Positions 17,351-61,759 of a stretch of DNA of 64,000 bases are shown here, piece by piece. Numbering within the stretch: the first letter of the stretch is position 1; each line of letters opens with the position of its first letter. Origin of the DNA: Mytilus edulis (lineage: Eukaryota); assembly GCF_963676685.1 (NCBI RefSeq), contig NC_092344.1, positions 49,724,001-49,788,000 on the forward strand. The letters are read 5' to 3'. The notes below the pieces were generated by a model. The model did not search any database and had not been told where the DNA came from. It was given only the letters and a program-made list of their open reading frames with translations. A program made the position numbers and the translations under genes.

Positions 17351-20300
17351 CACTGGGGTAAAGCTGATGACCGTAACTGCATTCACGGTCATCCCAAGAT
17401 GTCGGATGAAAAATTAGGTCAGTTTCTGTATTGTCTGTTAAAGTGTTTCTATATCATTTTCTTTACAAATCATACATTGAAACGATGTAAATTTATAAAA
17501 TAATCACTCGGAAATCACTAATTACTTCTGAGAAATGTGCATGAAACGGGAAATTCGATTTGAAAAAATCGCCAAGATGACCGTAAATCACAATCGAGAT
17601 GACCGTAACAGAATCAGCGATTCATAACAAGGCTGACCGTAACTGCTTTTAAGATGACCGTAATTTGTAAATGATGACCGTAACTTTTAAAGGATGACCC
17701 TCAATTCTAAGAAATATCCGTAATTATATAACTATCTTTTTGTATCAAATGATTAATCGTGTTGGTATACACATATTAATATGAAAGTTTTATCCTATAA
17801 GTAGAAGAAAATAAGACGTGCTTCAAATGCAAATATTACCATATGTATCTTTTTTACAGTAGAGGGTTCAATTTTTAAAATGAATTTGCCAAAAGACATG
17901 CGGTGCACAGCCTTCAACTGCTCGACAAAAGATTTTTTTTTGTTTCTGGGATTCCTTTTAATGACATATAATAAATACACATTTTTGAAAATGCCAAAAA
18001 ATTGCATGTACACCCATTGATATTATATCGTCTTTCATTTTGTCGTGCAAATAAAATAACAGAAATATTTTGAAAATATCATTCGAATAAACTAGTGAAG
18101 GTGAGCTCCAGCAAAGTAGATCCTTAAAATAGTATTGTACGAAAAGCGTATCACAAGGCGGAACGTTGTCAATATGTATATATACAGAAATGTTATTCAT
18201 ACAGTCAGGATTCTACTTCTTCAAAATTATCTCCCCATTACGCCAGTTCATGCTCACAGTCGTAGAAATGGAAGCCATTGTAGGGATGACGCTCTGCCAA
18301 TTTTGCTCTTGAAAACTGATAAATTTATCCACATAGCACCATTACGATCGATCGCTATATGTCAGTTATATTTTAAAATACAAATGTATCTACTAGCAAA
18401 TGAGCATTAGTTAATGATCTTGTCTGCATTGATTCAACTTAAAAATATTGTCTGTTTGGATGTCAGATGGAATTTTTGAAAATTCTTAAGCATTTAAAAA
18501 AATTCTAATTAAATATTTTGTGGAAGGGCAGACTAAACATTTTCAGTGGTTGAAGATTATAAACCCTAGTTATCACACACACATTTTCATCATCCAAATT
18601 AAAAGACTGTCGTCAAGTACTTTTAGAAAAAATAGCTATTCGAACACACCTACTCTGTTTTTGTGATTCATTAGATAGGTATCTCAATTGACCCATATAT
18701 TTCATCTTTTCGTACTGTCATTTTTTTACGTTATAAAGTCAACCTGTAGCTTTGATATATAATAATGATAGAATCTGAAGCGAGATGCTATATAAAATAC
18801 TCTTGCTTTGTACGTTTTAAAGACAAAATATATACCCCAAACATGCCCTAACATAAAAAGGTGCACTCGATTTTTCTCTTTTCGATACAATCGTTACCTG
18901 TTTTGGGGAATTTTTTCTTGATTCACATAATGGAAGGGCAGACACGAAAATTTCTGAACTAAAAGATTGATATGTTCTCCGTCCGTGATAAAAAAAAATC
19001 GGAGGATATGCATTTTTTACATTCAACTTATAGATACTATATATAAAAAAGAAGATGTGGTATTATTGCCAATGAGACAGCTAACCAGAAAAGACCAAAA
19101 TGACACAAACATTAACAACTATAGGTAACCGTAAGGCCTTCAACAATGAGCAAAGCCCATACCGCATAGTCAGCTATAAAAGGCCCCGATAAGAACCATG
19201 TCGTCGACTTGATATCTTATTGTTGTACATTACTATGTAATAGATACATTGAAAACTTATGCAAATGGTGTTTTTAAAATAAGAAAATTGTCGTTTTATT
19301 TGTTTCTATTAACTTTTTAAAATTTTGTTACTATATCAAACATTACAGTTAACTTTTATCGCTTTCTCGATAAACACAGAGTTTCGATTCTTTTGTTCTA
19401 TTTCAAAAGTGTTTCCGCCTGCATGTATCAAGACAAATTAAGATTTTAATCTGCTTCTTCTGGACCCATACACATGGGCTCGATTACCAAATATTCGTAT
19501 GTATTATTAATGTTTTTAATGCTCCATTTATTGGCATTATGTTTTTCTGGTCTGTGCGTACGTTCGTCCGTTCGTCTGTTTGTTTGTCCGTTTGTCCAGC
19601 TTCAAGTTAAATAAAATTGAAACTTAGTACACATTTTCCCTATGGAATGATCTTTTTAATTCTAATGCCAAATTACAGTTTTATCTCATTTTCATAGTCC
19701 ACTAAACATAGAAAATGATAGTGTAGATGAGGCATCCGTGTACTAGGGACACATTCATGTTTCTTCAAATTTTCATCGTATCGCTGTAAATTTGTGTTAA
19801 AATTTTAACGTCGATATCAATAAATATTTCATTGTTTACGAGAAAAATGCAATTTACTATCATTGTTATAAATCCTAAATATGGCCAATTATATAATAGT
19901 TTAAAAAAAGAAATTTATGAAACATATTTATATCCGCTAACCGCAAGCCCCTATTGAGATCGACAAACTCAACAAAAAAGCTTTGAATACAATACGGATA
20001 TTTCTTAGAATTGATGGTCATCCTATAAAAGTTACGGTCGTCCTATATAAATTACAGTCAGTCTTTACAAATTACGGTCATCCTTTACAAGTTACGGTCA
20101 TCTTTTTACCAATCACGGTCATCCTTGTTTTATGTTACGGTCATCTTGAAAATATTTTGATTATGATTTACGGTCATCTTAACGATTTTTTCAAATCGAA
20201 TTTCCCGTTTCATGCACATTTCTCGGAAGTAATTAGTGATTTTCGAGTGATTCTTTTAGAAATTTACATCGTTTCAATGTATGATTTGTAAAGAAAATGA

Positions 20301-20403
20301 TATAGAAACACTTTAACAGACAATACAGAAACTGACCTAATTTTTCATCCGACATCTTGGGATGACCGTGAATGCAGTTACGGTCATCAGCTTTACCCCA
20401 GTG
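17351..20403. mobile_element. Non-autonomous DNA transposon with ~370-410-bp TIRs, CAC termini and a 5-bp TSD (Transib-like)
   Basis: The left arm 17351-17722 and right arm 19993-20403 are inverted. Both start CACTGGGGTAAAGCTGATGACCG, are identical for roughly the first 140 bp, and contain arrays of GATGACCGTAA. Direct repeat CAAGT at 17346-17350 and 20404-20408. No intact transposase ORF. Confidence 0.8.
19045..19195 (+). repeat. Abundant SINE-like interspersed repeat (aagaagatgtggtatgattgccaatgagac...)
   Basis: The same sequence recurs near 34740, 46715 and 59565 (+) and near 1300-1470, 35500-35840 and 45490-45730 (-). Confidence 0.75.
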
Positions 20404-21130: not shown

Positions 21131-24100
21131 GGCATTATCTGTAGCCAATGGACATATACTCTATTTGTGTTAAGAAGGTCTGCGTAAAAGCATACTTTTA
21201 AAATATCTACATGGGAAGAAAGCAGTTTGATTTGAGGGCAAGGTGGTAAGAACTCCAGAGAGAGAGGTCAATGGCTCTGACGGAGCTCGAAGCGAGCGTA
21301 GAAGACGAACAAGAAGGCGTATATACAGCAACGGGCGACGACTGACACGACGCCAACTGTGTGGGCAGTATAAAGTAAAATCACAAGAAATACTAAACAC
21401 CGTGGAAAATTTCATACGGAACGTCCGTAATCAAATGGAAATACCAAAAGTATGATAGAATTGTAGGAGCTCCACAAAGAGTACCCCAACGTTTATAAAA
21501 ACTTCCTCAGAGTAGCTATGCTATGTGAATTTTACTGCTCTTTTTTGAAAATGACACCACCAAATGAGATTTGACAGTAGATACATGTAGCAATATACAG
21601 AAATTTCACCATCTCATTTTCGTTGCTTTCTTACGCCTAATCTTTGTGTCAGATGTGTACATATGTATGTAATCAGTATTTTCCGTAAATTTGATATCCA
21701 GTAGTTGAATGGTATTAAAAAGATCTTTCTTTTTTGGTGTATCCAACCTGCTTGTATTTGCTAAAAAATATAGCAAAGAGGTTAACGGTACCAATTTTCC
21801 TGCACCAAGATGCGCATTTCGACAATAAATGTCTCTTCAGTGATGCTCGTGGCCAAAATATTTGAAATCCAAAGCTTATATAAAAGATGAAGAGCTTTAA
21901 TCAAAAAGGTCTAAAAAGTATAGCCAAATCCGCGAAAGGAATCAGAGCTCTGCATGAGAGAGATACATTCCTTAATTTATCATAAGTTCTAACATTTTGT
22001 AACAGCAAATTTCAAAAACACAAAAACTCAGTATCTTCATGCCAGTACCGAATAACTGGCTACTGGGCTGGTGATACCCTCGGGGATTAACAGTCCACCA
22101 GCAGAGGCATCGACCCAGTGGTAGTAATAACATTAACGGTACCAATTTTCCTGCACCAGATGCGCATAAAGGTGTCACAAATATCCCCAAAATTTGACAA
22201 AAAGTAGAATTGCAATCCCCTGAAGTGATACCTTTTCTAAAACTGTTTACACATATCTTTCGAGAATTCAATTAAAATCATTTTTCTTAGTCTCATTTTT
22301 GTTTAAAATTGCGTCAAAAAAAAAAAAGTGTATTTAAACATTTGGCCCTATGGTGAAATATCGTTGTTAATTTCTGGGTCATTTGGTGTCCTGTGGAGAG
22401 TTATCTCATTGGAAATTATACCACATCTTCTTATTTTTATACTATAATTTTTTTCTACTAATACGGAAAATAAGGACAGTCAAATAAAAATTAGCCCATA
22501 AAATAGGTAAAAATAATCTTGATATTCTTAAAAACTAACTCTGAAGGCATCAGCTATCAAATATTGAATTTTATTTAACAATACTTGCCTATTTGAAAAT
22601 TCCTCTGGGCTTTCCCTTTCGAAATACCTTAGATCATTCCAGGTTTTGTTGGACTTTGTGTTGCTGAGTTATTAGTTTTCTATATTGTGTTATATGGAGT
22701 GCTGTTTGTCTTTTCGTCGGTTTTAGTTTTTCGCTATGGCTGTGTCGGTTGTTTTCGACCTTTGAGTTTGATTGTGTCATTAGTATCCCTTGCCTTTTGT
22801 TTAATTTTTTTCCCCTCCTTGAAAAGTACAGACATGTACTGGACATGGAGGAATTTGTGTACAGTCAAAATTAAATAGTAACAATACCTTTTCGCTGAAG
22901 CAAAGTTATGAGAGTTATTCAAATCGTGCAACAGTCATGTGTACTCTTGTACGGCCGAGTAGAAATCGAAGAGTGGTCAAATGCGCGCGGTCGCGTATAG
23001 ATGATCATTTATCGGGTATCAGTCTGGCATGGGTTTTTTTACGTATGTCGCAGTGATCTGGACGCGATCGGGCATTGGTCGAGTTAATCTGGACAACCGA
23101 TCACTCAGGTTGGCGTACATTCAAACATTCACGACTTCTTCATGACTGCATCACGACGCCAACCCGACCACTAATTGAATACATATTCGATGATTCCGAC
23201 CAATTCTCAATCAATACACGATCTTAACTCGACAAGCTGGATCAAATCAACTATACCCGATCTCAGCCTGATCTCGACAAAATCAGATCGACCTCATCAT
23301 ATAGGGGTCGTAGGTATACTCGGAATTGGTTGGGTTTGTACAATATCAGTATAATAACGTCTTATTATTTTTATAACGTTTCATGCAAGCTAGGGTATTA
23401 TCTGTGTCCTATGGATACATTCTCCGTTTATTTGGTTTTAAATTCAATAGTTCACAGTATGTCTCAGTAGAATCATATATTTAAATAATTTGCATGGAAA
23501 TAAGCAGTTGGATTAGTGGGCAAGGTGTTTCGAGCTCAGAGGGACAAGTTAATGGTTGTAACGGAGCTTGAAGAGAGCGTATAAAACATACAAGAAGGCA
23601 AAGACAACAACGGCCGCCAAGAAATCTCGATTAGACAGTGCACAGCGACCACTGCGTGGGCAATATAAAGTAACACAAAAATACTGAACTCCGAGGAAAA
23701 TCCAAAACGGAAAGTCTCTAATCAAATGGCAAAATCAAAAGTATGAGACTTCCTAAGAGTGAAGTAGGACGCTGAAATGTTATTGGAGTTTACTGGTATT
23801 TTTTCTTGAAAATGAATCCACAAATGAGATGTGTCACTGGATATGTACTGATGTAAGAACAGTAGTATACATCCCCTTTTCCTTGCTTTCTTATAAATTA
23901 AGCCTACTGTTTGTTTCAAATATATGCTTATGTATGTAAACAGTATTTTCTATAGATTTGATAGTAAGAAGTTAAAAGGTTAAAGATATTTCTTTTTGGT
24001 GTATCCATGGAAACAACCAGCTTTTTTTTGCTAAGAAAAATATTATAAAAAGGGGATAAAGATGTCACATATTTCGCCAAAATTTGGCCAAAAAAGAATT

Positions 24101-25545: not shown

Positions 25546-27183
25546 TTAATTCTGACCAAAAACAGATACCGTTCTATTGCCTTGGGAAAGAATCATTTTT
25601 GAGAAATTACTGGTAAAGCAAATTCCAACATATTGAAAACATTGTTCATCCTTTATTACGATGTCCATAAATGTACCATCTGGCTTCAGTCTACAAATAC
25701 CTTTTTCAAAAACAACAATGTAAACGTAACCATTGTTGTCAACTGCTATCTTCCACATATTATCTGTATTAGGTGTGGAGTATGTATAAACAAATGTACC
25801 ATCGTTTCTTATACATCCCATAACCTTTCTTGCAGTGTAATAGATATTTCCAGATTTATCCAAAGAAATAAACCAAGGTGACTCTTTCTTATTTTTGGTT
25901 TTTACTGACCGAATAAATCTTCCCTCTAGATCCAAAATGTTAATGTTCCCTTTGGTTCCAGCAAATATGTTTTTATGTGTAGCAGCAACTCCTCCTTGAT
26001 TACTTTCCTTTACTGACATTGTTCTAGAAATTTTCTTCTGATCAAAATCAACAAACTGTAAGACTTCTTCTTGGTCAGATGTCAGAACACCTAAGTTTTT
26101 TCCAGGGATTAGAGCAATATCCCAAGGTTGGTGTTTGGTATCAATTTGAAACTTGTAATTATCATTATCGTCATATACCAATATTCTACCACAGTCATTG
26201 TTGTCAACTAAGATGACTTCGTTATTATCATTTATTGTCATTCCGTAAATGCGTGCGTTCTCTATCTCTAAATCTCGTTTATGAACAAAGTTTGGCAAAC
26301 TAAGAGGTTGAACAATTGGCATTTGGGATTGACATTTTTTCTTCTGAACAAATTTTACGGCAGACTGAACTTCGATTAGTTCTATTGACCCGAGAGAGTT
26401 TATAGATTCCAGTGACTTCTCAGGATTTAGACTTATTTTAAATCTGGTTAACTTTTCTGTGATACCAGCTACTCTTTTCTCCAGATCTGTGAGATCTTGT
26501 TTGTACGCGTGAGCAGCAAGAAACGCTTGCTTTTCAGAACCATGTTTGTCTACAAGATCAAATATATCTTTTTTGTCTTTTGTCTTTTTTTCGATATCTT
26601 CTGTTTCATTAATTGTTGTCTTCGATTTCTGTATTATTTCATCTTTTTTTATATCTAGATCATGAAGTAAAGACTTTTCAAGAGCTTCAATGTGCCTAAT
26701 TGCTTCTTCTTTTACTATCTTTACAGCCGTTTTGACTGAATTAGCTTCCTTTACGACATTTTCAATACAACTCTTTTCGTCTTTACCAATTGTATGTGTG
26801 GTTTCTAAAACATGTTCTACAAGTTCCGTGGCATCTAAAAATGACTGGGACTGCTTTGCACCTTTACATGCTATATCCACAGACATCACCTTCTGGCAAG
26901 AGCGATGGTTTTCTGCTAGACATTCTTTGCAAGATAGAACATCATGATCGATACAAAAATACTCAAATGGCATTTTATCGTGTTTCAAACAGGAATGTTC
27001 TACGATAAGTGTGTGAGCCGGCATTTTACTGATATCTATGAGTTCATGATGCCGAAGCATTTTCATGGATCGATGGTTTTCTGTGCATTCTGAACATAGA
27101 GCCTCTTCACAAATTACACACCAATGAATGGAAACGTTATTTCTGTCCCGAATTTTGCATGGTTCACACTTAACTTTCTCCAT
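25546..27183 (-). CDS. TRIM-like protein: B-box1, B-box2, coiled coil and NHL-like beta-propeller; no RING; single coding exon, 545 aa
   Basis: B-box1 CEPC...WCVICEEALCSECTENH...HH and B-box2 CLKH...YFCIDHDVLSCKECLAENH. A heptad-rich middle region is followed by repeats such as PWDIAL, PWFISLDKSGNIYY and WKIAVDNNGYVYIV. The acceptor gttttctgttttag|aaaATG directly precedes the start codon. Confidence 0.9.
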   Translation of the reverse strand: MEKVKCEPCKIRDRNNVSIHWCVICEEALCSECTENHRSMKMLRHHELIDISKMPAHTLIVEHSCLKHDKMPFEYFCIDHDVLSCKECLAENHRSCQKVMSVDIACKGAKQSQSFLDATELVEHVLETTHTIGKDEKSCIENVVKEANSVKTAVKIVKEEAIRHIEALEKSLLHDLDIKKDEIIQKSKTTINETEDIEKKTKDKKDIFDLVDKHGSEKQAFLAAHAYKQDLTDLEKRVAGITEKLTRFKISLNPEKSLESINSLGSIELIEVQSAVKFVQKKKCQSQMPIVQPLSLPNFVHKRDLEIENARIYGMTINDNNEVILVDNNDCGRILVYDDNDNYKFQIDTKHQPWDIALIPGKNLGVLTSDQEEVLQFVDFDQKKISRTMSVKESNQGGVAATHKNIFAGTKGNINILDLEGRFIRSVKTKNKKESPWFISLDKSGNIYYTARKVMGCIRNDGTFVYTYSTPNTDNMWKIAVDNNGYVYIVVFEKGICRLKPDGTFMDIVIKDEQCFQYVGICFTSNFSKMILSQGNRTVSVFGQN

Positions 27184-27271
27184 TTTCTAAAACAGAAAAC
27201 AAAATGAAAGAAAGTGCATGTTATTATTGTCTTGTAATAGTTATCAAAGGTACCAGGATTATAATTTAGTA

Positions 27272-31287: not shown

Positions 31288-33006
31288 AGCCCGGTACCAC
31301 TAGACCACAATAGCACCACGCTCACCGCGATATGAAATAAATTCAGATCGTGGTGAGGTCGCAGTATGCGCGGCGCGGCATGAAAATGTAAACTTTCGTT
31401 GTTTTCATGATGATACTGCGTCCTTGTTACGCTTTTACAACGATCCCGCTCTTAGGATTATACCACGTTCTCATCACGCTTTTTGTACGATTATCATGAT
31501 CCTACTACGCACATGAATTTATTACTACGACTATACCACGAGTTATCTGATCGCAACACGATCTTACCATCCTTCTTTCTACTGCGATAATGGCAAGTTG
31601 GATATGAGCGTCACTGATGAGTCTTATGTATACGAAACGCGCGTCTGGCGTACTGAATTATTCTCCTGGTACCTTTAATAACTATTAACCATGATTATAC
31701 TACCTTCATACCGCGATCTTAAATTACGTTCTAAGCAATAGCGTGAACATCGTGTTCCATATGAATACTGTTTCATTCCTTCTACTTTTGATTAATACGT
31801 AGATTTCTCGGAAACAACACCGTCATGCCATCGAAATCTACTAGAACACGTGGGTGTGATGGTAGGGGTAGATGTGGAGGCAGATAGAGCTCTGATAGTA
31901 ACGAATTCTGATCCAGCAGAAATGTCGGACCGACCAATCCAACCTAAATTACAACCTATTGCAGGTCCACCAAGCTCAAATAAGGATATTAAGGTAGCAC
32001 TCCACAGTATAAAATAAAATTGAAAATGAACCACACAATGTTTTATCATCTCCTATTCCTTGATTTCTTATACATTACCCTAACTGTTTGTGTTGTACAT
32101 GGGCATATGTATGTTATCATTATCTTCCATAGATTTGATTTTCAAAAGTTAATAGTATAGGGTGAAATATAATTCCTTTTAAGTGTATCCATGGCAATAT
32201 TCTGTAATTATTTACCATAAAATATTGCAAAAAGGGGGGTGAACATGTCACATATCCCCATAATCTTTGGATCAATCTTAAATTTCAATGCCTTTGAGCG
32301 ATACCTTTTTAGAAACTAATGACATTAATCTTCCTTACGATCAAATAAAAAATGGGTGTCTTTCGCCTCATTTTTCGTACAATTTAATTACAAAGTTCGT
32401 GCGAAAAAAAAGTTGGAAAATAACCTTACAATAATTGCCAGACCAATTTATGATATGGATATGCAAATATGGAGACTGTGATACAGAACACAGTCTATAT
32501 TACATGCATGACATAATCTTGATGTTCAAATAAACCCAATATGAAGTAACACACACACAAACAAAACCTTGAGAGATTTAAATATATTTTATGTGAATGA
32601 TGGTCGTAGTATGAACGTAGTCAGGTCGTAAGTAGAGCGTGATGAGTCCGGCATGTGCGTGCTAGAATTGTACTATGGTATTGAACAGCGTGGTGTAAAC
32701 GTGGTACAGGCGTAGTTGGAGCGTAGTCGTAATATCATCGCTGTGAGATCGTAGCGCAGTCTCTCCGAATCGAATCACGCTTTCGATACGGCCATACGCT
32801 CTCGCTACGATAGTTCAGCGACCTTTGCGATCTTACCACGACCTTAGTGCGCTCTCACAACGCTTCTACTACGACCGCATCACGATTGTTTTGGCCACGC
32901 TCATCTCGATTTTGAAGACCTAACCACGACCGTATACGACCTTACTGCACGATCGCAGTACGATCGTCAAAATTTGCATTTTTTATAGATCATAGTGCGA
33001 TCGTGG
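31288..33006. mobile_element. Decayed Harbinger-like DNA transposon with ACG/CGT-rich subterminal repeats
   Basis: Starts taa|agcccggtaccactagaccac. The right end is a partial inverted match (gatcatagtgcgatcgtgg). It contains a stop-ridden basic ORF remnant (MPSKSTRTRG...) and a nested hammerhead fragment at 31609-31650. Confidence 0.5.
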
Positions 33007-33626: not shown

Positions 33627-35088
33627 AAGTAACATTAGTTTAATCATGGAAGTATTATTTAAAATATGACTTCCATGGTGTAGTATATCATCAGAGAATT
33701 TAAAAATTAAGTAAGTAATAGCACCTGAGATAACCCCTCCTTTTTGGTGGGGCTCGTATTGCTAAGTCTTTAGTTTTCTATATTTTGTCTTGTGAACTAT
33801 TATTTTGTCTGTTTGTCGTTTTCTTTTTTAGCCATGGCGTTGTCAGTTTATTTTCTATCTATTAGTTTAAATGTCCCTCTGATATCTTCGCCCCTCTTTA
33901 ATAAATTGTCTGTACAGACACACTGACTTCTAATCTGATGATGTTATTGGGCCTTAATCGTCAACCAGCTGTGGTATCGACTTAATCCTAGTAATTGAAA
34001 TAAAAAAAAAAACTTTTAAATACTCCATACTAATACATTTGTTAATCTAAAAAAAAAAAGATTATACCAAAAGTAGTATTTTAGTTTTTTCAGAAGACTA
34101 CAATATGCACATGATTTTTGCAAATTGAAAAACGCACTATACCAAAATATATACGCTTTCTTTAAATCAAAGCGAAAAAAGACATTCCTAAAATTTTACT
34201 TCAAAAATAATTTTGAATTCTAACCAAAATAAATGCATAAACCAATGAATCACAACAACTGTACAAAATGGTGTTCCAATCCACAAATTCCAAGACGTTT
34301 GTAGATTTTTGCTTTGTTTTTCAAATTATTTTTTTAATTTTTTTTAAATAACTTATTTTTACGAAATTGAACAAAATAATGACACATCTACATAGTCTAA
34401 TTAGGCACCCAATATATGCTATTTGAGTTTTTATTTTCTGAAAATAAATGAAGTATAAAAAAAAAGGACAAACGTTAAATCCATAGTGTTCCTGCATCCT
34501 CCATACGGGTCATAGCTATAATAATAATTTTCGGCATTTGATGTCTTATCCTTTGACGAGAAAAGTCTGTAATTCTGATCTTATCTAAGCCAATAGCTGT
34601 TGCTGGATCTCAGCCGCATCATAAAGCAAACACTCAGAATCTATATGTGATAAGTAATTACTTCAAGAGGGCTATGCATAGGGTGGTTGCATTCCTATGG
34701 CAAAAAAGCTTGAAAATACAAATGTAAAAAGTAATTATAAAAAGAAAATGTGGTATGATTGCCAATCAGAAAACTCTCTACAAAGGACCAAAATGACACA
34801 GACATTAACAACTTTAGGTAACCGTACGGCTTTCAACAATGAGCAAAGCCTATACCGCATAGTCAGATATAAAGCTATAAAAGGCCCCGAAATGACAATG
34901 TAAAACAATTCAAACAAGAAAACAAACGGCCTTATGTATGTGCAAAAAAAGAAAGAAAAACAAATATGTAACACATAAACAAACGACAACCACTGAATTG
35001 CAGGCGCCTGACTTTGGACAGGCACATACATACAGAATGTGCCGGGGTATGTTCACTTGTTTGTGTTCACATGTCTTTTGAGTGAGTT

Positions 35089-35446
35089 TACACCACTGGG
35101 TCGATGCCACTGCTGGTGGACGTTTCGTCCCATAGGGTATCACCAGCCAAGTAGTCAACACTTCGGTGTTGACATGAATATCAGTTATGTGGTCATTTAT
35201 ATAAATTTCCTGTTAACAAAACTTTGAATTTTTCGAAAAACTAAGGATTTTCTTGTCACAGGAATAGATTACCTTAGCCGTATTTGGCACAACTTTTTGT
35301 AATTTTGGATCCTCAATACTCTTCAACTATCATGTACTTGTTTGGCTTTATAACTATTTTGATATGAGCGTAACTTATGAGTCTTATGTAGACGAAACGC
35401 GCGTCTGGCGTACTAAATTATAATCCTGGTACTTTTGATAACTATT
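35089..35446 (+). mobile_element. Near-complete monomer of the second retrozyme family (CUGAUGA type); core mutated to CTTATGA
   Basis: Shares the caccactgggtcgatgcc...caccagcc..cttcgg domain with the 350-nt unit. Hammerhead remnant at about 35369-35410. Confidence 0.8.
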
Positions 35447-36606
35447 TGGCCTTTTCAATTTATATTTAATTTATAGTGTGACTGTCTATATTGTGAAGTT
35501 ACACTATTGTTTCAGGTAAGGGTGAAGATTCGTACCTATCTAAACGTTTGAACCCGCTGCATTTGTCTGTACTTGACCAAACTGAGGAACTTAATGCTCA
35601 GTTCTTGTCCATGTTTGTTCATGTTTGTTCATGTGGTTCATAAATGTTTCTCCTTTTTCATATAGATAAGACCGTCGGTCTTCTGTTTGAATGGTTTTAA
35701 ACTAGTCATTTTTGGGGCCATTAACATTTTGCTGTTCGGTGCTCCGTATCACAGACGGTACCTTGATCTATAATGGTTTACTTTTACAAATTGTGACTTT
35801 AATCGATAGTTATCTCATTGGTACTCATACCAAATCTTCTTATCAACCAGTAAAACAGTTTTACAACTGGCAATATCAAATATAATTCTTTTAACTATGT
35901 TATTAATTTTGTGCTGCGCATATGTAACTACCAGTCCGGGTGGTTTGAGATTAATTCAGAGAAATTGTTTAATGACAAAAGCTAAATATGTTTTTCTATG
36001 CTAAACATAATGCATAGAAGGAGATTAATTAAATCATAAGTCAATAACGCAAAGTTGGGTTATTATATAGGCCATTGTTATATTATAGTTCATTTCTGTG
36101 CGTGTTAATTTTTAATGTTGTGTTTCTGTTGTGTCGTAGTTCTCCTATTATATTTGATGTGTTTCTGTTGTGTTGTTGTTCTCAACTGATTATACATCTT
36201 TGATATATGTTTTGATATTTTCTAAAGTGTTTTAATGTAAAATAGAACATTTTTTTGTCAATTTAAATGCAAAAAAAAAAAAAAAAGAACCATATGTGGA
36301 TGCACAGGATATTTTTCTATATTGTCTGTAATTTGTCGTCATTACTTATAAAAAAAATCAAACACATCAATAAGTTTGCACTCAAAACGTTTAGAGGATA
36401 TTTTTCTTTTTTTGTTGTTGTGCTGATTGGTAGCTGTTTCCTTCAGGTAAACGCTATTTCTTTTCTATTTTTCAATTTTTTTAATACAGTTTCAATGATG
36501 AGAAGTACAACTGAATAAAATAAAGAAAACAAACTGTGTTCAACATTTTATTTTATAAAAAAAACAATACTGTTAGTGTGAAGTCTGGATTTCAGTGATA
36601 TGTTGT

Positions 36607-38081
36607 TCATGGTTTGTATCCTTTAGATGGTCTCCTTCTACAAATCATGTGACAATTAACAGAAGCACAGTATTTGTTCGTTGGACAATCGCCATCACTA
36701 AAACAGTCGTTTTTACAATCAGTTTTTGCTCCTACCATTGACTGAGAAACGAATCCTGAACCGGAAGAACGTGCTGATCCGCTTCGTCTGGATGAAACTG
36801 TATCTATAACATCAAGTCCACTACGTCTAGAAGAGATTGCGTCAAGAATATCAGAACCTGTATGACCGGACACTCCACGGCTACTACCTAAAGTGTCCAA
36901 ATGAGAACTTCTAGCCAGACCGGATGAACCAATTCTTCTGCCAGAGGATAAATGACCATCATTACTTGAAACTCGGGTCAACCTAGATGATGAACTTCTA
37001 ATCATTTCTGAGATTGCGTTACCTCTGTTTATAGAGTCTGACAATCGTGATGTACCAATTATACTTCCAGAAGAAATGTCGACGCAGTAACTGCTACAAC
37101 CATCATGTACACATTTTTGTCCTGAACGACATACTTTGTCTACTCCACATCCATAATGACAGTTACTATCATCGTCAGATAAAGTAAGTGACAAACCCAC
37201 TGATGAGTCTCTTATGATTTCAGATGAAGAGGTCCTGCCACCAAAAGAGCCCCCAGATAAACCTCTACTGGCTGATGACCCGCGTGTTATAAATTCATTG
37301 CCTATTCCATGTGATGTTCCAACAGCTCTTGATCCTGCTCGTCTATTTGCATCAATAACGTCTAAAACAGAAAGTGATTCGCCACCACGACGCCCGGTTA
37401 TGTCTCTTCCTAGTGTGCTTTCGACTACTAAAGTCGTCTTACCTCCACGTGTAACTGATGCATGTTTTCCAGTTGGTGCATATACTGTGAAATAGATATT
37501 TGACATTATTGCACAAATATACACGAGACAGTTTTAATCTATATATTAATATAAGGACATCTGGTACTTTTGCTTATAAGACATCAATCCAATTTGAATC
37601 AAATGACAGGAATGTTTACAACTGTAGGAACCTAACGATTTCAGCACTGTAGAAATCTCATACTGTTTAGCAAGATAAAAATGTAAATAAGTTGAGCATG
37701 ATCTGCTTGCCTTTTTGGCGCACCTGTGTGATTGTGTTGCTCAGTTTTTAATGTTTTTATGAAGGGTTTTATGTACTATTATTTGTCCTCATTACACAAT
37801 ATTAAAACATATGAATTAGTAAACCATTCATTTAAATTTTTTCTTTAATAATTTACTAAAATAAATACAATTTGGAATGATAAATTCATATGTACTGAAA
37901 TTATCTTCATTTAAGATTTTTGTTTGTTGAGGTATTTGGATTTTTTTTTGTATCAAAACATCGAAAATCCTTTTGTAGAATAACCTATGAATTTTGAGAA
38001 GGCAAATCGAATATTTCTCTTACCGGCTAGTGTTACTGTTGCCAATGCCAACAGAAATAAAACGGTCTGGAATCTCATCAT
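36607..38081 (-). CDS. Copy C: secreted Ser/Gly/Arg-rich protein with two 6-Cys WAP-like modules, 311 aa; join(38081..38024, 37484..36607)
   Basis: A 58-nt exon encodes the signal peptide MMRFQTVLFLLALATVTLA. A phase-1 intron (gtaag...tttcacag) joins it in frame to YAPTGKH..., open to TGA. AATAAA near 36547-36552. Confidence 0.92.
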
Positions 38082-38898: not shown

Positions 38899-40392
38899 CA
38901 TGATGCATTCGTTAATTATAGATGAAACTTAAAATGTCACCATGTCATTTTTATATGGAACTGTGAAATATGTATATCTAACAAATGCACTAAGGGTTCA
39001 TAACACATTGTGTTTCCTTCTATAGCTACAACAGACATATTTGTTATGACATCATAATAAATGTTTGTATTATAAATCATTGTTTGACCGATTATTAATG
39101 TTTTCATATAAACACATTATATATTTGGTAGTAGCCAGAGACTTGTACTTTTTGAAAACAAATAAACTAACGCCCTTTATTTCCTTATAGACAAAATACA
39201 TTCTTTTCTTAGAATTGTTAAGAAACCGCTGCTTTGTAATTTATTTACCTCACAATATAAAACTCATCTAAGTTTGAAGGATTTCAATAAAATTTGTAAG
39301 ACACGCATCTTGGCTGTTTCAGATTCACTAGACGTATTCGAATCAATCAAAACAGTAAAAAGGGAAGATCATGATCAATTTTGAAATTATGAAACTAAAG
39401 AGGATGAAAAACCAAAAACTCGAACGTAGTTGCGTCAAATCTATTTAATGCCATCTTGATAGCTTTATTATTTTAATCAGTTTTACCTTTTTTTAGTGAA
39501 ATGTATATTTTTCAGACCAGAATCTTTCATCTAAACAAAAACATTTGCCTTCTGATAATAGGTTACTTTCGAAGATAAACCGTTTACAAGCAAAAAAAAG
39601 CTAACGGTTTACCTTCGAAAGATACCAAAAAGGACATAAGTCGAAAATATAACGACAATCCCCTGATAAATATAAATATCAACACTTATTAGAAGACGGA
39701 CAGAACAGTTTACAAAACACAGATCACCAAAGACTAGGCAACAATAATCAAACAAAAAACTGGTAATCTTGTCACTGATTCTCCCGCGCTTCAGCTATTG
39801 TGAACAATAAGATGTTAGATCTTTTCTTACTTAAAATAAAACCTGTTTTACCCTGACATTCATTTAGAGCTTTATATAATGTGCGTGTACCTGTCAATTA
39901 TCGACGACTTTATGTTACTTTATATATGTCTTTAGGTTTTTTGTGTCGTTTGGTTGTTATTCATTCACATGCAACCCGCGTCTCCTTTTATTTAAAAATT
40001 TCTCAATGCGTGTTTTTTTTTCTTTCTCAACGTTATAATTCAAATGATGCTGTTGCTGTTTCCAGTTTTACCAAGCTAATACTTTTAATTCGATACGCAA
40101 GACGTGCGTTTTATCTGCAAGCTTTGTACTAAAATTAAAGACAAGATTAGATACAAAGTGTACAAACTTAAGTATAAGATAATTACACTTCAAAATCAAT
40201 TAATTACAGTGAAACCTATTTTAACCGAACTTATTAGGGACTTCAGATTTTGTTCGGTTATGGCCGAAGTTCGGTTTCATCAAGTTCACAATGCAAATAA
40301 TTTGATATCACAGTGCTATACTTTTTGGACCTTTTGGATTATAGCTCTTCATCTTTTATATAAGCTTTGGATTTCAAATATTTTGGCCACGA

Positions 40393-40436
40393 GCATCACT
40401 GAAGAGACATGTATTGTCGAAATGCGCATCTGGTGC
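40393..40436 (+). ncRNA. Minimal type I hammerhead ribozyme
   Basis: gcatca-CTGAAGA-gaca-tgtat-tgtc-GAAA-t-gcgc-a-TC^tggtgc. Predicted cleavage after 40430. Confidence 0.9.
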
Positions 40437-40742
40437 AAGAAAATTGGTACCGTTAATTTTATTACTACCACTGGGTCGATGCCTCTGCTGGTGGACTATT
40501 AGTCCCCGAGGGTATCACCAGCCCAGTAGCCAGTACTTCGGTACTGGCATGAAAATACGGATTTTTTGTGTTATTAAAATTTGCTGTTACAAAATATTAG
40601 AAATTATTATAAATTAAGGAATGTATCTCCCTCAGGCAAAGCTCTGATTCCTTTCACGGATTTGGCTATACTTTTTGGACCTTTTGGATTATAGCTCTTC
40701 ATCTTTTATATAAGCTTTGGATTTCAAATATTTTGGCCACGA

Positions 40743-40786
40743 GCATCACTGAAGAGACGTGTATTGTCGAAATGCGCATCTGGTGC
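40743..40786 (+). ncRNA. Minimal type I hammerhead ribozyme
   Basis: Same motif, with stem II gacg/tgtc (G-U wobble). Predicted cleavage after 40780. Confidence 0.9.
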
Positions 40787-41786
40787 AAGAAAATTGGTAC
40801 CGTTAATTTTATTACGAACATGTTTGTTTTATACAGGTTTTCGGTTTATAAAGGATTTGGGTTAGGCAGGTTTCACTGTAGTATGACAATGATTAATTTC
40901 AAATAACAAAAACAATATATCATTGCACTGTTTTGTTTGCGTATTTTTATTTTTGTGTGATTTAGTTTTCATCCTACAACCATACAAAAAGCAAAAAGAT
41001 TGGTATTTTAATCTTTAGATTAAAATGAACTAACAAAAACGTTTAGACCAGTAACACCAGTTTGGCATTAGAAAATATAACTATTCCGAGGATGAAACAA
41101 ACAATTATGTTTGTCACTTACACGCACTACTTTCAATGTTTTGCTTTTTCTAACAAAACTTAAATCAAACAGCAAATTTAACCTTTGTCATTGTTGAATA
41201 CAGATATTAGAAAATTGGTTGGTTTACTAAACAAAAACGATAAATATCATAAATTTCATATGATAAAAAATGGAGATTTTTTTTGTTTATCACTCACATT
41301 TTTAAGTAAGGGTTCGTGTTTTAAATATTCTCTGTTATATTTTTTGTACTCTTGTTTGTTTTGGTATTTCCTTTAAAAATGTCCTGTACCAAGTCAGGAA
41401 TATGGCCATTGTTATATTATGGTTCGTTTTTGTGTGTGTTACAATTTAACGTTGCGTCGTTTGTTTTCTCTTATTTTTGAGTGTAAATTGACATTGCGAT
41501 AAGACGTGTCACGGTACTTGTCTATCCCAAATTCATGTATTTGGTTTTGATGTTATATTTGTTATTCTCGTGGGATTTTGTCGGATGCTTGGTCCGTTTC
41601 TGTGTGTGTTAGTTACATTGTAGTGTTGTGTCGTTGTTCTCCTCTTATATTTATGCGTTTCCATCAGTTTTAGTTTATTACCCCGATTTAGTTTTTTGTC
41701 CATGGATTTATGAGTTTGAACAGCGGTAAACTACTGTTGCCTTTATTTGGTCTTTTTCATTTTTTGTCATGGATTTGTCAGTTTAA

Positions 41787-43375: not shown

Positions 43376-44773
43376 TTGTTTGTAACCTTAATTAGTATTT
43401 TTTAATCAATGTATGTGATTTGACTATCAGTAAATTATCGTTGACTACATTCTATCAGTATCAACTTCAGAAAAAAATATCAATATGAAACAAACATTCT
43501 CATCTTTAAAAAGAGAGACGAATGATGACATAGAGATATTCAAAACTTATTAGATAATACAATTAATTATCTAATTACTACCACAATTTGATATTAATAG
43601 AAAGTATTGCAATTTTCATTAATAAATGTAATAAAAAGCATTACAAATCTAATCTTGAATCAATCCTAATTCTATCTTATTTTTGGGAAATATTTTTAGA
43701 AATTCAAATGTGACGTCACTTTGTGTGTTTTTTTTAAATTTCAAATGTGACGTCATTTTGTGCGGTGAGGCTTTGTCTAAATCGGCTGTGTAATTTTATG
43801 TGCTGGATTCGGTTGTTTTATGTAATGTGTCCGTTTTTATTCTGTAGCTAGTCACCACTTCGGTTATATCATGTATATCTATTATATAGTCATTTCATAA
43901 AATTTATTGTTTGCAAAAGTATGAATTATTCTAAATAATAAGGATGTTCTTTTTGAAACTTTTGGTCCTCAGTGCTCTTCAACTTTGTACTTGTTTTGGC
44001 TTTCGAACTTTTTTCATCTGATCGTCACTGGTTAGTCTTGTGTGGACGAAACGCATGTCTGGCGTATAAAATTGTAAACTTGGTACCTTTTGTTAGCTAT
44101 TATTCGTGTGTTTCTCTATCCTATATGTTCTCCCATTTATTTGTATTGTAGTCTTGTCATGTAATGTTGTCATTTTAATGTTATATTTAACATTGCCATA
44201 AAAGCGGAGGTTTGGCATGCCACACGACCAGTTTCAATCTTAAAATGTCCTGTACCAAGTCAGAAAAATTGCCATTGTTATATTATAGTTCGTTTCTGTG
44301 TGTGTTACATTTTAATGTTGTGTTTCTGTTGTGTCGTTGTTCTCCTCTTTTATTTGATGCGTTTTCCTCAGTTTTAATTTGTAACCCGGATTTGGTTTTT
44401 TTCTCAATCGTTTAATGAGTTTCGAACAACGGTATACTACTGTTGCCTTTATTAGTCATGTTTGTCGATAGAAAAACAAAACGCAACGAAATCTTTTCAC
44501 ATACCACTACAAATAAAATGTTATTTAAGCAATATGAACACCACACAATTGATTTATCTTTAAAATATCTGAGATGTAAAAACACTTAATGACAAATAAA
44601 AGAACATGTAAATATGTTCAAACGAGAAATCCAAATATTGTCTTTTATGAGAAAGTTTTGAATAAATTCTGCTTCATATTAGCACTATAAAATTTGTTTA
44701 ATCAGTAATTTGCATTCTATTTAACATTCTTCAACTTAGTACTTGTTTGACTTTTTAACTATTTTTATCTTAG

Positions 44774-44815
44774 CGTCACTGATGAGTCTTATGTAGACGA
44801 AACGCACGTCTGACG
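44774..44815 (+). ncRNA. Hammerhead motif with intact core and a perfect stem I
   Basis: cgtca-CTGATGA-gtct-tatgt-agac-GAAA-c-gcac-g-TC^tgacg. Confidence 0.75.
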
Positions 44816-45739
44816 TATTAAATTATTAGCTTGGTACCCTTGATAACTATCTACAGTATCATTAAGTATAAGCTTATTCAAAGTTTTCAATACTAATAAT
44901 TATACGAAGTATTAATGACATGATACTGCTTTCTAACTTCTTTATTGTGAGAGGCAACTATGCGAAATGAATGATTTAACATGAAGCAAAATTCAATAGA
45001 GATCGCTTTAAAAGAACAAAATTTCTTGTAAGCTGAGGCAAAGAAAGAGTTTTCACAGTTTGTGCATTGTTTTTTAATACTTAGTAGAAAAAAATGGTGT
45101 CACGATGCCCTGGAATGATGATTATGACAATATATAGAATATATAAAACTATTAAAATATACCTTATTGATCCCATGCATTCCAATAGTGACTGTCTAAA
45201 AATCTTAACCATTAACGACATAGCTGAAAAATAACTTATATACATGAATTTTCTATAAGTTTTTAGATGCTTTGGACTAGCTGTCACTAACAATGAGGAC
45301 TCTCAAATGTGTACCTAGTTTTTTTTTATTATTATTTGGATGTACAAGTAACCGGCCACGTTCTCTCGTGTTTTCGTAAGATATATTTCTAGTTGTATCT
45401 ATCATGTCTATCTGATGAGTTAAGCCTTTTTCAAAAAATCTGTATAGTTCGTTTATATGTTGAACTGTTACACAACTGTCCCAGGTTAGGCTTTGCTCAT
45501 TGTTGAAGGCCGTACAGTGACCTATAGTTGTTAATTTCTATGTCATTTGTTATCTTGTGAAGAGTTATCTTATTAGCAATCACACCACATCTTCTTTTTA
45601 TATATAACAATAAACAAAAATAATATGGGTGTTGCTCATTGTTGAAGGCCGTGGTTGTTAATATCTGGGTCATTTGGTCTCTTATGAAGAGTTGTCTCAT
45701 TGACAATCACGCCACATTTTCTTTTCAACATACACCAAT

Positions 45740-50228: not shown

Positions 50229-52019
50229 TCATCCTGAGTATCCTTTGGATGGTTTTCTTCGGCAAATCCTGTGACATTTAACAGTGGTACAGTATTTGCT
50301 TGGTGCACAATCTGTATCAGTATGACATAGTTTTCTGCAATTACTGAGGTCTCCTACTACTGACTGAGATACGATCCTTGAACCAGATGATCCAACTGAT
50401 CCTCCTCGTCTAGAAGAAATTGTGTCCAATGCATCCATGCCACTACGTCTAGATGTAATTGTGTCCAATGCATTAATGCCACTTCGTCTAGCTGAGATAG
50501 TGTCAAGAATATCAGAACCTGTATGACCAGACAATGTACGACTGCTACCAATAGTTTCCAAATGAGCATTGCTAGATAGATCCAAACGTCCTGTCAAAGA
50601 CTGACCAGAACCAATTAGGCTACCAGATGCTATTTGTACGCAATAGCTGTTGCATCCTTCGTGGACACATTTCTGTCCTAACCCACATAGTTTATTGTCT
50701 CCACATCCATAATTGCATTTCAAACCATCAATGCTTGACAGTCTTGATAAGTCAGATGACGAACCTCTAATAATTTCTGAAACTTTATTTCCCCTTCTTA
50801 TAGACCCCGATAATCCAGATTCACCAATGACACTCCCAGATGAAACTTGGACACAATAACTGTCACATCCATCGCGTACACATTTATGTCCTAGGTTACA
50901 TAATTTATCTACTCCACACTCATAATGACAGTTTCTGTTTATACCATCATTGCTTGCTATACCAGCAGAATTCTGAAATGAAGAGCTTCTTATAATTTCA
51001 GAGACAGCTGAACTTCTTCTGTCAGATCCTGCTCGTCTATTTGCATCCATTACATCCAATACAGAAACTGAGTCTCCAAGAGGACCTCCAATGTCTCTAC
51101 CAACTCCATTGTCAAGCTGTAAAACCTTGTTCACTCCATGTAGACCTAATTTCTTTTCTGTAGGTGTATAGGCTGTAAAGAAATATATGAGGTTTGTAAA
51201 ACTTATATCAAACAAATACTGTACACCAACTTATTTTCGCGGATACTTTATTTCGCGTTTATCACCAGCTAGTCAATTTCGCGGCGATTTAATTTCGCGA
51301 TTTCTTAAATTTACTTGATGTGGTTTGATAAGGAAATATCTAAGTTATACATATTCGCGACGATTTAATTTCGCGTTCGTTTTCTTCTCGCGAAAGTCGC
51401 GAAAATAAATCGCTCGCGAAATTAAGTTGGTTTACAGTATTTTAAAATTCTTTGAAAGAATACAGAAAAATCATCATATAGTGCCTTTTCTTATTATAAA
51501 TCTAATTCCTAATAATATATTTGCAGATCCATAAGTGATAAATTTAAATATCATTGATTACACATGTTTATAAATTAACTGCAAAACTTTCATTTATTTA
51601 AAAACACTTCGGACATTTGGGATCCTCAGTTTTCTTTAAATTCAATCTTGATTCGGCATTATAACATGTATAACATTTCTATTCGAGCATTCCTGATGAG
51701 TCTTTTGTAGACGAAGCACGGGTATTTATTATCGAATTATAAGCGTGGTATCTTTGTTGGGTAACTAGAACTTGATCTTAACTATGTCAGAAAACTTTGT
51801 TTATAAAAAGCTTATCAAAGGTGCCAGACTTATAATTTTGTACACCAGACGCATGTTTCTTCCTTCATCATAAGTGTTATCAGAGATTATGGTATCACAA
51901 CAGTTTGAAAGCCAAATAAAAAATAATAATCTTGAGAAAGCGAATATAAGTTAATGCTTACCAGCCACTGACATTATGGTCAATAACATTGACAATGACA
52001 TAGTTTCAAATCTCATCAT
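50229..52019 (-). CDS. Copy D: secreted Ser/Gly/Arg-rich protein with three 6-Cys WAP-like modules, 333 aa; join(52019..51962, 51172..50229)
   Basis: A 58-nt exon encodes MMRFETMSLSMLLTIMSVA. A phase-1 intron (gtaagc...tttacag) joins it in frame to (A)YTPTEKK..., open to TGA. Confidence 0.92.
51219..51437. mobile_element. TA-target MITE (Tc1/mariner-like) in intron 2 of copy D
   Basis: TIR ctgtacaccaacttattttcgcg / cgcgaaattaagttggtttacag with TA on both sides and internal tttcgcg repeats. Absent from copy E. Confidence 0.85.
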
Positions 52020-58190: not shown

Positions 58191-60228
58191 GTGACATGTG
58201 CGCAAACATATGTGTGGTTTTAAAACATTCTATGATATTGTTCATGACTTTGTTATCGCTAAGGCCAACATTAATTTTAACACAAAAATATATGAAGACA
58301 CTGTTCATGTTGTTTTATGTTTTTGTGCTGTTGTGTTTCAAATGTGGTTCTTCTTTCAAGAACATCCTAGTATTAAAACTTATTTTTTTAAACATTATTA
58401 ACGGGTGACAAATACCTTTTTATCTCTTTTTGAATAATTAAACTGTTAAAATGATATTTTCCTAGCTAAATACAATCACAACACTAGCAGTGACATGTAT
58501 GCATTAGCATATACAATTCATTATTTATTATTTTACCATCACGAAATGGTTGATCCATACAATGTGTCTTTGTCCAAACTAACTAAGGACATTTTGATCA
58601 CGTGTTAGAGTGTGGTTTGTCATTATGTCGTCTGATCTTTTAATTACCGAACGTGAATTATTCCTGATTGTACTTTTGTTGCTGAGTGTGAATTCGCATT
58701 GCTATATATAAGACGTGTCACGGTATTTTCCAACCGAAATTCATGTATTTAGTTTTGAGGTAATATTTGTTATTCTCATCTAATTTTGTCAAATTATTAT
58801 CGTTTGTAGTTGTAAATTCAAATGTGACGTCACTTAAATTTGTGCGTTTATCGATTTGGCTAACGCGGTTGTGGATTTCTATATTCTGGTTTAAATTATT
58901 TACCTATTCGTTTTATTTTGTAGTTAGTCACCGGTTTTATCATTTATATCTATTATAAAGTCATTTTATAAAATTACTGTTTGCAAAAGTATGAACTATT
59001 CTAAATGATAAGGATGTTCTTATCCCAGGCAAAAAAAACAAGCCGTATTTGGATAAACTTTTTGGAACTTTTGGCCCTCAATTCTCTTCAACTTTGTACT
59101 TTATTTTGGCTTTCGAACTCTTTTCATCAGAGAGTCTCTGGTTAGTCTTGTGTTGACGAAACGCGCATCTTGCGTATTAAATTGTAAACCTGTCACCTTT
59201 TGTTAGCTATAATTCAAGTGTTTCTCTGCCCTGTATGTTCTCCCATTTATTGTATTGTAGTCCTATCATATAATGCTGTCATTTTAATGTTATATTTAAC
59301 ATTGCCATAAAAGCGGAAGGTTTGGCATGCCACAAAACCAGGTTCAACCCACCATTTAAATGTCCTGTATTAAGTCAGGAAAATGGCCATTGTTACATTA
59401 TAGTTCGTTTCTGTGTGTGTTACATTTTAATGTTGTGTTTCTGTTGTGTCGAAGTTCTCCTCTTATATTTGATGTGTATCCCTGGGTTTTAGTTTGTTAC
59501 CCGAATTTGTGAGGTTTGTTTTTCTCAATCGATTTATGAATTTCGAACAACGGTTAACTATTTATAAAAAAGAAAATGTGGTATGATTGCCAATGAGACA
59601 GACCAAAATGACACAGACATTAACAACTATAGGTCACCGTACGGCCTTCAACAATGAGCAAATGCCCATACCGCATAGTCAGCTATAAAAGGCCCCGATA
59701 AGACAATGTAAAACAATTCAAACGAGAGCAAGTATTGTTGCCTTAATTAACATCACCAAAAGGCCAACATTAAGGCTAACACAATATGATATAATTACAT
59801 TTTGCATGTCTATTGTGTTTTATGCTAACGTGTGTATCATATGGTTTATTCACACTACATAATCATTTACGCTTCATTTATTTTTTTTAATTTACGGGAG
59901 CGGTTACCATTCATATAATGTCCTTTATTTGTTTTTGTAATATCTTTATTTCGAAATATTTTTTCTTTTTTCATGAGAAAGTTCAGAGTTATCAATATAA
60001 CTTGACTGTCATATTTATGTTATTTTCCTTTACGTGTATTTTTATCTGTCTATTTGGTGTAGATATCTTATGATTATGATTGTCTCGACGTCTTAACTAT
60101 TCAATGTTTTTGAACGATTCTCAACATATTTACAACAAGACTATTTGTATTTAATATTTTATTTATTTCATAATAAAAAAAAATCGGTTTGCGTAAAAAG
60201 ATGGATTTCTACAAAATTCTAATTATGT

Positions 60229-61759
60229 TCATCCTGAGTATCCTTTAGATGGCCTTCTTCTGCAAAGCCTGTGACATTTAACAGTGGTACAGTATTTGCT
60301 TGGTGCACAATCTGAATCAGTATGACATAGTTTCCTACATTCACTGTCGTCTCCTACTACAGACTGAGAAACGATCCTTGAACCAGATGATCCAACTGAT
60401 CCTACTCGTCTAGAAGAAATTGTGTCCAATGCATCCATGCCACTACGTCTAGATGTAATTGTGTCCAATGCATTAATGCCACTTCGTCTAGCTGAGATAG
60501 CGTCAAGAATATCAGAACCTGTGTGACCAGAAATTGAACCACTGCTACCAATAGTTTCCAAATGACCATTGTTAGATAGACCCACACGTCCGGTTAAAGA
60601 CTGACCTGAACCAATTAGGCTACTAGATGATAATTGAACGCAATAGCTGTTGCATCCTTCGAGGATACATTTATGTCCTGATGCACATAGTTTATTTTCT
60701 CCACATCCATAACTGCATTTTGAACCATCAATGCTTGACAGTCTTGAAATTCCAGATGATGAACCTCTAATAATTTCTGAAACTGTATTTCTATTTCCAC
60801 TTCTTATAGACCCCGACAATCCAGATTCACCAATGACACTTCCAGATGAAACTTGGACACAGTAACTGTCACATCCATCGCGTACACATTTCTGTCCTAG
60901 GTTACATAATTTATCTACTCCACACTCGTAATGACAGTTTTTGTTTATACCATTATTGCTTGCTATACCAGCAGAATTCTGAAATGAAGAGCTTCTTATA
61001 ATTTCAGAGACAGCTGAACTTCTTCTGTCAGATCCTGCTCGTCTATTTGCAACAATTACATCCAATCCAGTAAGTGACTCTCCACGACGAACTCCAATGT
61101 CTCTACCAACTCCATTGTCAAGCTGTAAAACCTTGTTCACTCCATGTAGACCTAAATTCTTTTCTGTAGGTGTATAGGCTGTAAAAAATGTACGAGCTTT
61201 GTGAAAGAAGTAATAGCTGTTTTAAAATCGTTTTAATGCGTGCCTGTTTAATGCGAATATAGCAAAACTATCATCTTTATATTGTGTTATTTTCATTATA
61301 ATGTTTATACAGGTTTATCAATGAGAAGTTAGGTTGACATCGATATTGTCATATTCATAAATTAACTGCCAAAATTACATTAAAAAACTTCGAACATCTG
61401 TTGACCTCAAATTCAAAACTTGATTTTAGCATTTAGATTTGAGCTTTTCGGCTGGGTCTTTTTTAGACGATATGTGGGTCTTGTGTACAGACTTAAAAGT
61501 GTGGGATCTTTGTCGAATCGTATCTTAACTACGTCAAACATATTTGTGTAAAAACGAAGCTCATCAAAGGTACCAAACTTAACATAATTGTGTACGCCAG
61601 ATGTCGTTTACAAAATATGCATCCATAATGCTGGTATCAAAACTGTTTGAAAGCATAATAAAAGAAAATGATAGAAAAGGCGAAAATAACAAAATGCTTA
61701 CCAGCTACTGACATTATAGTCAACAACATTGACAATGACATAGTTTCAAATCTCATCAT
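60229..61759 (-). CDS. Copy E: tandem paralog of D with three WAP-like modules, 335 aa; join(61759..61702, 61178..60229)
   Basis: A 58-nt exon encodes MMRFETMSLSMLLTIMSVA. A phase-1 intron joins it in frame through (A)YTPTEKNLGLHG into ORF 60229..61140. Confidence 0.92.

Follow-up and report, generated by a model that had tools for sequence, protein, structure and literature searches.

Retrozyme insertions in the mussel Mytilus edulis end beside a hairpin in common with Naiad, a likely source of their reverse transcriptase

The element at 40315-40814 of the window analysed here (64 000 nt of the Mytilus edulis assembly GCF_963676685.1, contig NC_092344.1, positions 49 724 001 to 49 788 000, forward strand) is a young, 5'-truncated retrozyme copy of 1.43 units. 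It belongs to a family whose insertions end at a fixed position beside a hairpin that is also carried by Naiad, a Penelope-like element (PLE) without hammerheads, and we consider it likely (probability roughly 0.7) that the copy was written by a hairpin-binding Naiad reverse transcriptase (RT). More broadly, and with somewhat less assurance, we favour the view that the Naiad 5' hairpin, from mussels to acorn worms, is an RT-binding signal with cDNA starting 5-6 nt upstream of it, and that mussel retrozymes are chimeras of hammerhead and signal, whose ribozyme-made circles exploit a retrotransposon lacking hammerheads and enter the genome by rolling reverse transcription.

The insertion lies on the plus strand and consists of a 116-nt partial unit, a 350-nt monomer (40431-40780) and a 34-nt 3' end. 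Two type I hammerheads, at 40393-40436 and 40743-40786 on the same strand, are 350 nt apart, with AUC triplets ending at 40430 and 40780, the positions after which cleavage is predicted. A preliminary description of this DNA had proposed exactly this arrangement, and it was upheld by a descriptor search with six hits in the window, whereas 100 simulated windows averaged 0.03 (maximum 2). Each hammerhead has a 6-bp stem I, CUGAAGA, a 4-bp stem II, GAA and a 2-bp stem III capped by GCGC, and both carry the type I core (CUGANGA / GAAA / UH, three helices, helix I open). The 5' hammerhead has the family-majority sequence, and its stem I is predicted to extend via an internal loop to about 40386-40448; the 3' hammerhead contains a rare letter, G40759. 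The monomer, the predicted product of double cleavage, has a predicted energy of −86.5 kcal/mol as a circle, and 40315-40465 differs from 40665-40815 at 1 of 151 positions. The element is low in GC and non-coding: the sole overlapping ORF of at least 100 aa begins in the flank and has no Pfam match. No RT or GIY-YIG ORF was found in it, which sets it apart from an autonomous PLE. Two further structures stand downstream of the first cleavage site on the plus strand, namely a Naiad-type hairpin at 40470-40527 and, 3' of it, a small UUCG-capped hairpin at 40529-40548.

The very short, palindromic stem III noted earlier is confirmed as 2 bp under a GCGC tetraloop, but the label 'minimal' does not fit these hammerheads. 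With an extended stem I and a 2-bp helix III under a tetraloop they are canonical, as metazoan hammerheads with a palindrome-capped helix III of 1-2 bp are described (PMC4209133), and neither has the absent helix III, or helix III of the core pair only, that defines the minimal PLE type. A scan with the Rfam model Hammerhead_1, which had been suggested as a check, missed both at E ≤ 1; it reported five sister-family sites at 23-32.7 bits, all below the gathering score of 34. The hammerheads may act as dimers but might not have to, given the rate of about 0.1/min at which one mussel repeat was cleaved after cloning (PMC7229834).

The flanks of the retrozyme are two halves of a single MITE (40207-40878), which is bounded by terminal inverted repeats and has TA at either flank, and the insertion occupies a GCTTA site within it. 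The empty site is represented by 13 uninterrupted MITE copies from 11 loci, which read GCTTA in seven cases and close variants in the rest. As the retrozyme begins with GCT and ends with TTA, there is 3-nt microhomology to the target at each end, and comparison with the empty site leaves a target duplication of at most 1 bp. Across 27 arrays of the family, a short exact search for target-site duplications returned only AT-rich words of 4-7 nt. By eye, arrays L016 and L020 have longer, imperfect flanking repeats.

We counted 4612 exact hammerhead cores of this family in the genome and 15 385 of a sister family with a CGCG loop, which falls into two subfamilies with different tail lengths. Arrays of the family range from under one unit to at least eight head-to-tail units. 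Type I hammerheads in 350-nt tandem units (150-450 bp being the range for metazoan non-LTR retrozymes) place the element among the non-LTR retrozymes of the Mytilus type, as first proposed, and the accompanying remark that the class was already known in this genus fits the account of M. galloprovincialis (PMC7229834), which describes about 5000 ribozymes in 350-390-bp units, abundant circles and closure by RtcB. The family agrees with those retrozymes in size, number and host genus, and presumably corresponds to the clone assayed there. It is transcribed: in four RNA runs from two studies, of which 6-18% of each run was read and whose donors are possibly not the sequenced animal, 497-1407 reads per run matched at 95% likeness and covered the whole length, with a sense excess of about 3:1 in two runs, weaker in one and near even in one.

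Other copies occur in the window. The element at 21782-22167 on the minus strand had been described as a second unit of the same length. It does contain a full monomer, 93.4% identical, and ends at about +26 past the cleavage site, but its start, only 9 nt ahead of the first cleavage site, leaves out the 5' hammerhead, and an extra T just past the cleavage site alters the 3' one. A third, 5'-truncated copy at 15475-15664 (minus strand) retains one intact hammerhead and the family 3' end, and a sister-family copy at 35088-35405 (plus strand), about 70% identical, has the same hairpin. The sister family has about ten copies in the window, among them this one and those at 2853-2896, 12608-12654, 31608-31651, 44773-44816 and 63855-63895. 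The RNA reads also contain a third hammerhead family, whose 546-nt unit has a palindromic CCGG loop and whose exact cores number 768 genome-wide. The Naiad hairpin is missing from this family, most of its copies terminate at +370, frequently within TA repeats, and its PLE partner is probably a different one.

The remainder of the window holds two C2H2 zinc-finger array ORFs of 554 aa each on opposite strands (3625-5289, minus; 10764-12428, plus) and a local gene family represented by a repeated ORF of approximately 330 aa with weak WAP four-disulfide-core matches (36607-37533, 50229-51230 and, on the minus strand, 60229-61221), with related DNA near 13985-14900 and 140-1115. A 546-aa ORF at 25546-27186 (minus strand) combines a B-box zinc finger with a weak beta-propeller match (TRIM-like), and a 250-nt inverted repeat, 96% complementary with arms 2.5 kb apart (17351-17600 and 20154-20403), is a possible DNA transposon.

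The most regular property of the family is its 3' end. Among 27 best-hit arrays, from which three loci had been excluded as overlapping duplicates, 25 end at +32 to +36 past the last cleavage site. A second set, 42 arrays drawn without selection, in genomic order, from the exact-core matches, has 35 ends at +30 to +37 and four more there after one further unit (39 of 42); the remaining three end at +2, +27 and +163. The 5' ends, on the other hand, are scattered over positions 9-326 and run into unrelated flanks. Hundreds of RNA reads from other animals likewise exit the element at 40463-40464 into mixed flanks. A fixed 3' end with scattered 5' ends is the pattern expected of target-primed reverse transcription with a fixed internal start. 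In the copy under study the fixed end occupies 40781-40814 (plus strand), where the terminal TTA provides the microhomology to the target and reverse transcription would have begun at +33/+34. The two sister subfamilies end elsewhere, at about +39 to +50 (20 terminal and 9 internal copies), just before their own hairpin. Since the sister subfamilies and Naiad all end beside the hairpin, and the hairpin-less 546-nt family ends mostly at its distant position, the insertion end tracks the hairpin and not the ribozyme.

The hairpin at 40470-40527 comprises a 7-bp stem, a 1-nt bulge, a 6-bp stem and a conserved inner loop, starts 5-6 nt past the position equivalent to the fixed 3' end, and is a putative RT recognition signal. 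GIY-YIG matches in the genome led to about eight PLE families in 20 fetched loci, the set within which a closer partner was sought. One of these is Naiad, with an N-terminal GIY-YIG domain, a C-terminal RT, a 1053-aa frame, no hammerhead, and a protein start that by eye is nearly identical to that of Naiad_Mgal as published (PMC8557442). Its pseudo-LTRs are 194 nt long and 99.5% alike, and directly after the upstream one lies a stretch resembling monomer positions +35 to +100. Of 30 Naiad copies, 29 had their end inside the flank examined, and all 29 (the reference itself being one) end within −7 to +4 of the reference end, 14 of them at positions equal to +33/+34. The Naiad family is young: at least seven open frames of 1053-1056 aa were present among 110 scored matches, and the top copies are 95-99% identical. 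The genome contains what a Naiad passenger would call for, a common structure at the 3' insertion end with the same offset and a young, intact autonomous partner.

Folded separately, the retrozyme and Naiad RNAs give the same 7-bp stem, 1-nt bulge and 6-bp stem (z −2.3 and −4.2). In an alignment of eight rows, which represent only two independent groups, 103 of 104 cells pair and three pairs are changed on both sides, against 24-51% pairing in slid controls; the count of doubly changed pairs, taken alone, was reached by 49 of 500 shuffles. Judged by eye, the inner motif of this hairpin also stands at the start of 10 published Naiad sequences, whose hosts range from bivalves to hemichordates and whose stems are compensated in other ways; the supplement of PMC8557442, from which they come, uses the term 12 times in all. 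We also looked for a closer hairpin in another Naiad family, but 30 loci drawn from 404 matches yielded only the one Naiad family and retrozyme copies. Two further observations concern Naiad sequence. The Naiad at L153 (minus strand) has a sister-family retrozyme 3' end (29 nt, 97%) inside its 3' untranslated region, and a four-copy repeat in the window (36040-36194, 41374-41528, 44240-44394 and 59355-59509) has a part, near 41375-41400, that by eye resembles the Naiad pseudo-LTR. A 2020 review states that metazoan retrozymes have no conserved motif pointing to the mobilizing element (PMC7761336). In the literature searched, as far as the texts were available and with subscription journals and Repbase outside it, neither the Naiad hairpin nor an end offset common to Naiads and retrozymes is reported; relative to that literature both are new, the retrozyme class itself being already known.

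Which RNA the reverse transcriptase copied can be approached through the arrays. Units differ by 2.8% within arrays and by 6.4% between them (52 units), of the 233 variants seen within arrays only 34 turn up again in at least two others, and 12 of 13 multi-unit arrays have array-wide common letters. Judged from sequence, the low divergence and the few recurrent variants fit one template per array. An alternative to a circular template keeps the same Naiad partner and start but makes the template an uncleaved linear multimer or read-through transcript, so that circles are a by-product and the ribozyme is unneeded for insertion. This has some appeal: ribozyme mutants of a PLE insert normally in vitro (PMC11167929), most RNA reads cross the cleavage site uncut, the few arrays and solo pieces that start at or near +1 do so as on linear RNA, and three of the nine arrays displayed have alternating or mixed units. 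Arrays L004 (C6:59403000-59406349) and L009 (C4:12638318-12641668), with seven to eight units, show a two-unit alternation with a different 3'-most unit, and the last unit of L007 comes from another variant. For these three, one monomeric circle is inadequate, and later duplication, recombination or a multimeric template is called for; the alternation in L004 and L009 could reflect either local duplication or a dimeric template. The array-wide letters and the scarcity of recurrent variants nevertheless speak against uncleaved RNA as the general template, as do the reported share of circles in mussel retrozyme RNA (75-95%; PMC7229834) and the retention of a palindromic loop III in three families despite different letters, which suggests selection on the ribozyme. 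We therefore regard an uncleaved template as unlikely, and favour the circle by about 3 to 1.

The start points of short insertions add detail. A cut linear monomer primed at +34 should yield inserts of 34 nt, and such pieces are present: starts at +1, as expected of run-off at the cleavage site, made up 11 of 13 pattern hits, 10 of them solo. Control starts at +5 accounted for 0-1 of 3 hits, and those at −2 for eight hits at six distinct loci. We considered these +1 starts as a sign of germ-line cleavage and rejected them, starts at the −2 control position also occurring and a minimum insert length explaining the data equally well. Each of the solo insertions of 34-36 nt (L264-L276 and L280-L287) begins at the cleavage site or no more than 2 nt from it, and a T stands before every one of the six distinct −2 starts. 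Given 4612 intact cores against 11 insertions with a +1 start, nearly all cDNAs must have crossed the junction, on a template that was either a circle or uncleaved RNA.

The RNA reads are less discriminating. Reads joining 40780 to 40431, which the preliminary description had proposed as a test for circles, are uninformative because the same letters stand in the DNA of this copy and of every tandem array; the 151-nt reads fit a circle and tandem DNA copies or uncleaved multimers alike. Read joints that go back 350 nt, of which there were 43-362 per run, are a product of the permuted reference layout and were discarded as circle evidence. Among the positions listed for the four runs, none reflects an accumulation of RNA 5' ends at +1. 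Two weak hints of self-cleavage were seen: first-mate starts at 40777 were frequent in three runs of one study (50 of 218, 39 of 114 and 45 of 209) and fell under the threshold in a second layout, and depth dropped by 16-31% across the cleavage site in the sense direction only; priming bias is possible in both cases.

The preliminary description also held that this copy looks functional, a claim that found no support. That the copy itself actively produces 350-nt RNA, linear and circular, seems to us doubtful, although both cores are intact, only 2 of 350 positions depart from the family majority, and palindrome-palindrome dimer pairing is predicted at −10.5 kcal/mol. Read depth upstream of 40315 is 0-6 in the four runs, and the two rare letters are nearly absent from the RNA (no more than 8 reads out of 1444 carry G40635, and no more than 33 out of 822 carry G40759). 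G40759, which is never array-wide among the sampled arrays, gives stem II a G-U pair in place of A-U, and folding predictions for it prefer a misfold: considering secondary structure alone, without tertiary or dimer contacts, the active fold of the 3' ribozyme is at −2.8 kcal/mol and its misfold at −11.8, compared with −3.7 and −7.8 for the 5' ribozyme. Furthermore, 78 nt of the element precede the first ribozyme, such that monomer release would need read-through or a promoter there. Silence of the copy is likely, and only likely, because the RNA donors may be animals that lack the insertion.

It is improbable, in our view, that the hairpin is a relic of Naiad origin, or an element of transcription or RNA stability, and that another Penelope-like RT, for example that of a hammerhead-bearing PLE, mobilizes the retrozyme. 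At least two PLE families in this genome do have minimal GCGC-loop hammerheads of their own, 89 and 129 nt past the ORF, and vertebrate retrozymes have been traced in a preprint to pseudo-LTRs that bear hammerheads (10.64898/2026.07.22.740005). However, the flanks of the hammerhead-bearing PLEs match the monomer only in short AT-rich words, in Naiad as in three subfamilies it is the hairpin that the insertion end tracks, and the Naiad family is young, with the open frames described above. The hammerhead-bearing elements are themselves young and autonomous, with one core pair plus the GCGC loop in their 3' regions (L150, L137, L136 and L151 at 89 nt; L148 and L129 at 129 nt). A 28-nt match near a 911-aa PLE family appears to lie antisense within its RT region and was taken as chance. 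That the element is merely a stranded pseudo-LTR of an autonomous PLE is barely credible: PLEs do show partial tandems and a fixed 3' end (PMC8557442), but arrays reach eight head-to-tail units with 5' ends running into unrelated flanks, and no ORF flank in 20 PLE loci matches the monomer except at the hairpin.

The reading we prefer, mobilization by Naiad, can be set out as a cycle. Tandem copies are transcribed on the ribozyme strand, as observed at the level of the family, and the hammerheads would then release 350-nt monomers for circularization by a host ligase, as published for Mytilus retrozymes other than this copy. The Naiad protein would bind the hairpin, nick AT-rich DNA and start cDNA 5-6 nt before the hairpin, at +33/+34. 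From there the enzyme would read backwards through the cleavage/ligation junction, with the circle as the most likely template, and fall off at random; the observed arrays, with their fixed 3' end and lengths from less than one unit to eight or more, would result. Some arrays may later have been enlarged by local duplication. The copy at 40315-40814 is probably an inert product of this cycle. By analogy, a mechanism for the start is supplied by a Penelope-like RT that initiates internally and requires RNA downstream of the start site (PMC11167929).

The locus itself is ordinary, and its interest lies in the anatomy of the family, which bears on the open question of which element mobilizes metazoan retrozymes. 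The common hairpin and end offset put a name to the candidate enzyme, narrow the RNA signal to 60 nt and predict the start nucleotide, each of them open to an in vitro assay already published. If the reading is correct, an enzyme and a cis signal could be named for animal retrozymes, and Naiads would have their first candidate template signal. A ribozyme-free element would then carry ribozyme circles, contrary to a simple budding of retrozymes from hammerhead-bearing pseudo-LTRs.

The closest known relatives are the retrozymes of M. galloprovincialis (PMC7229834), which have the same tandem type I hammerheads in low-GC, non-coding units of approximately 350 nt, thousands of copies and two related, transcribed families. 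Our exact-core counts are larger than the numbers given there, and the clone described is 353 nt long; a fixed 3' end and a partner-specific motif are absent from its main account, although the supplement may bear on the ends. Minimal PLE hammerheads (PMC4209133) have a similar palindromic loop III and possible dimer action, but most of helix III is missing from them, whereas the pair studied here has the canonical 6-bp/4-bp/2-bp layout. The vertebrate retrozymes of the preprint cited above are also non-autonomous PLE passengers; there, however, the link runs through hammerhead-bearing pseudo-LTRs in Xenopus, no recognition signal is named in the text as seen, no mollusc was sampled, and one of nine dimers tested cleaved. 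The green anole PLE Poseidon (PMC11167929) likewise has a fixed internal RT start downstream of a hammerhead and needs RNA 3' of that start, but it is autonomous and of another clade, its start lies about 85-92 nt past the cleavage site, and the site is not homologous to the target; its ribozyme is protein-dependent and dispensable in vitro, where unprocessed RNA is the main template. Naiads (PMC8557442) are autonomous and without canonical hammerheads, unlike the retrozyme, and the mussel Naiad hairpin carries an extra stem-loop of 21-24 nt. It is the hairpin alone, and not the pseudo-LTR, that the two have in common, yet Naiad_Mgal matches the retrozyme in its 5' hairpin, end offset, 5' truncation, partial tandems and little or no target duplication.
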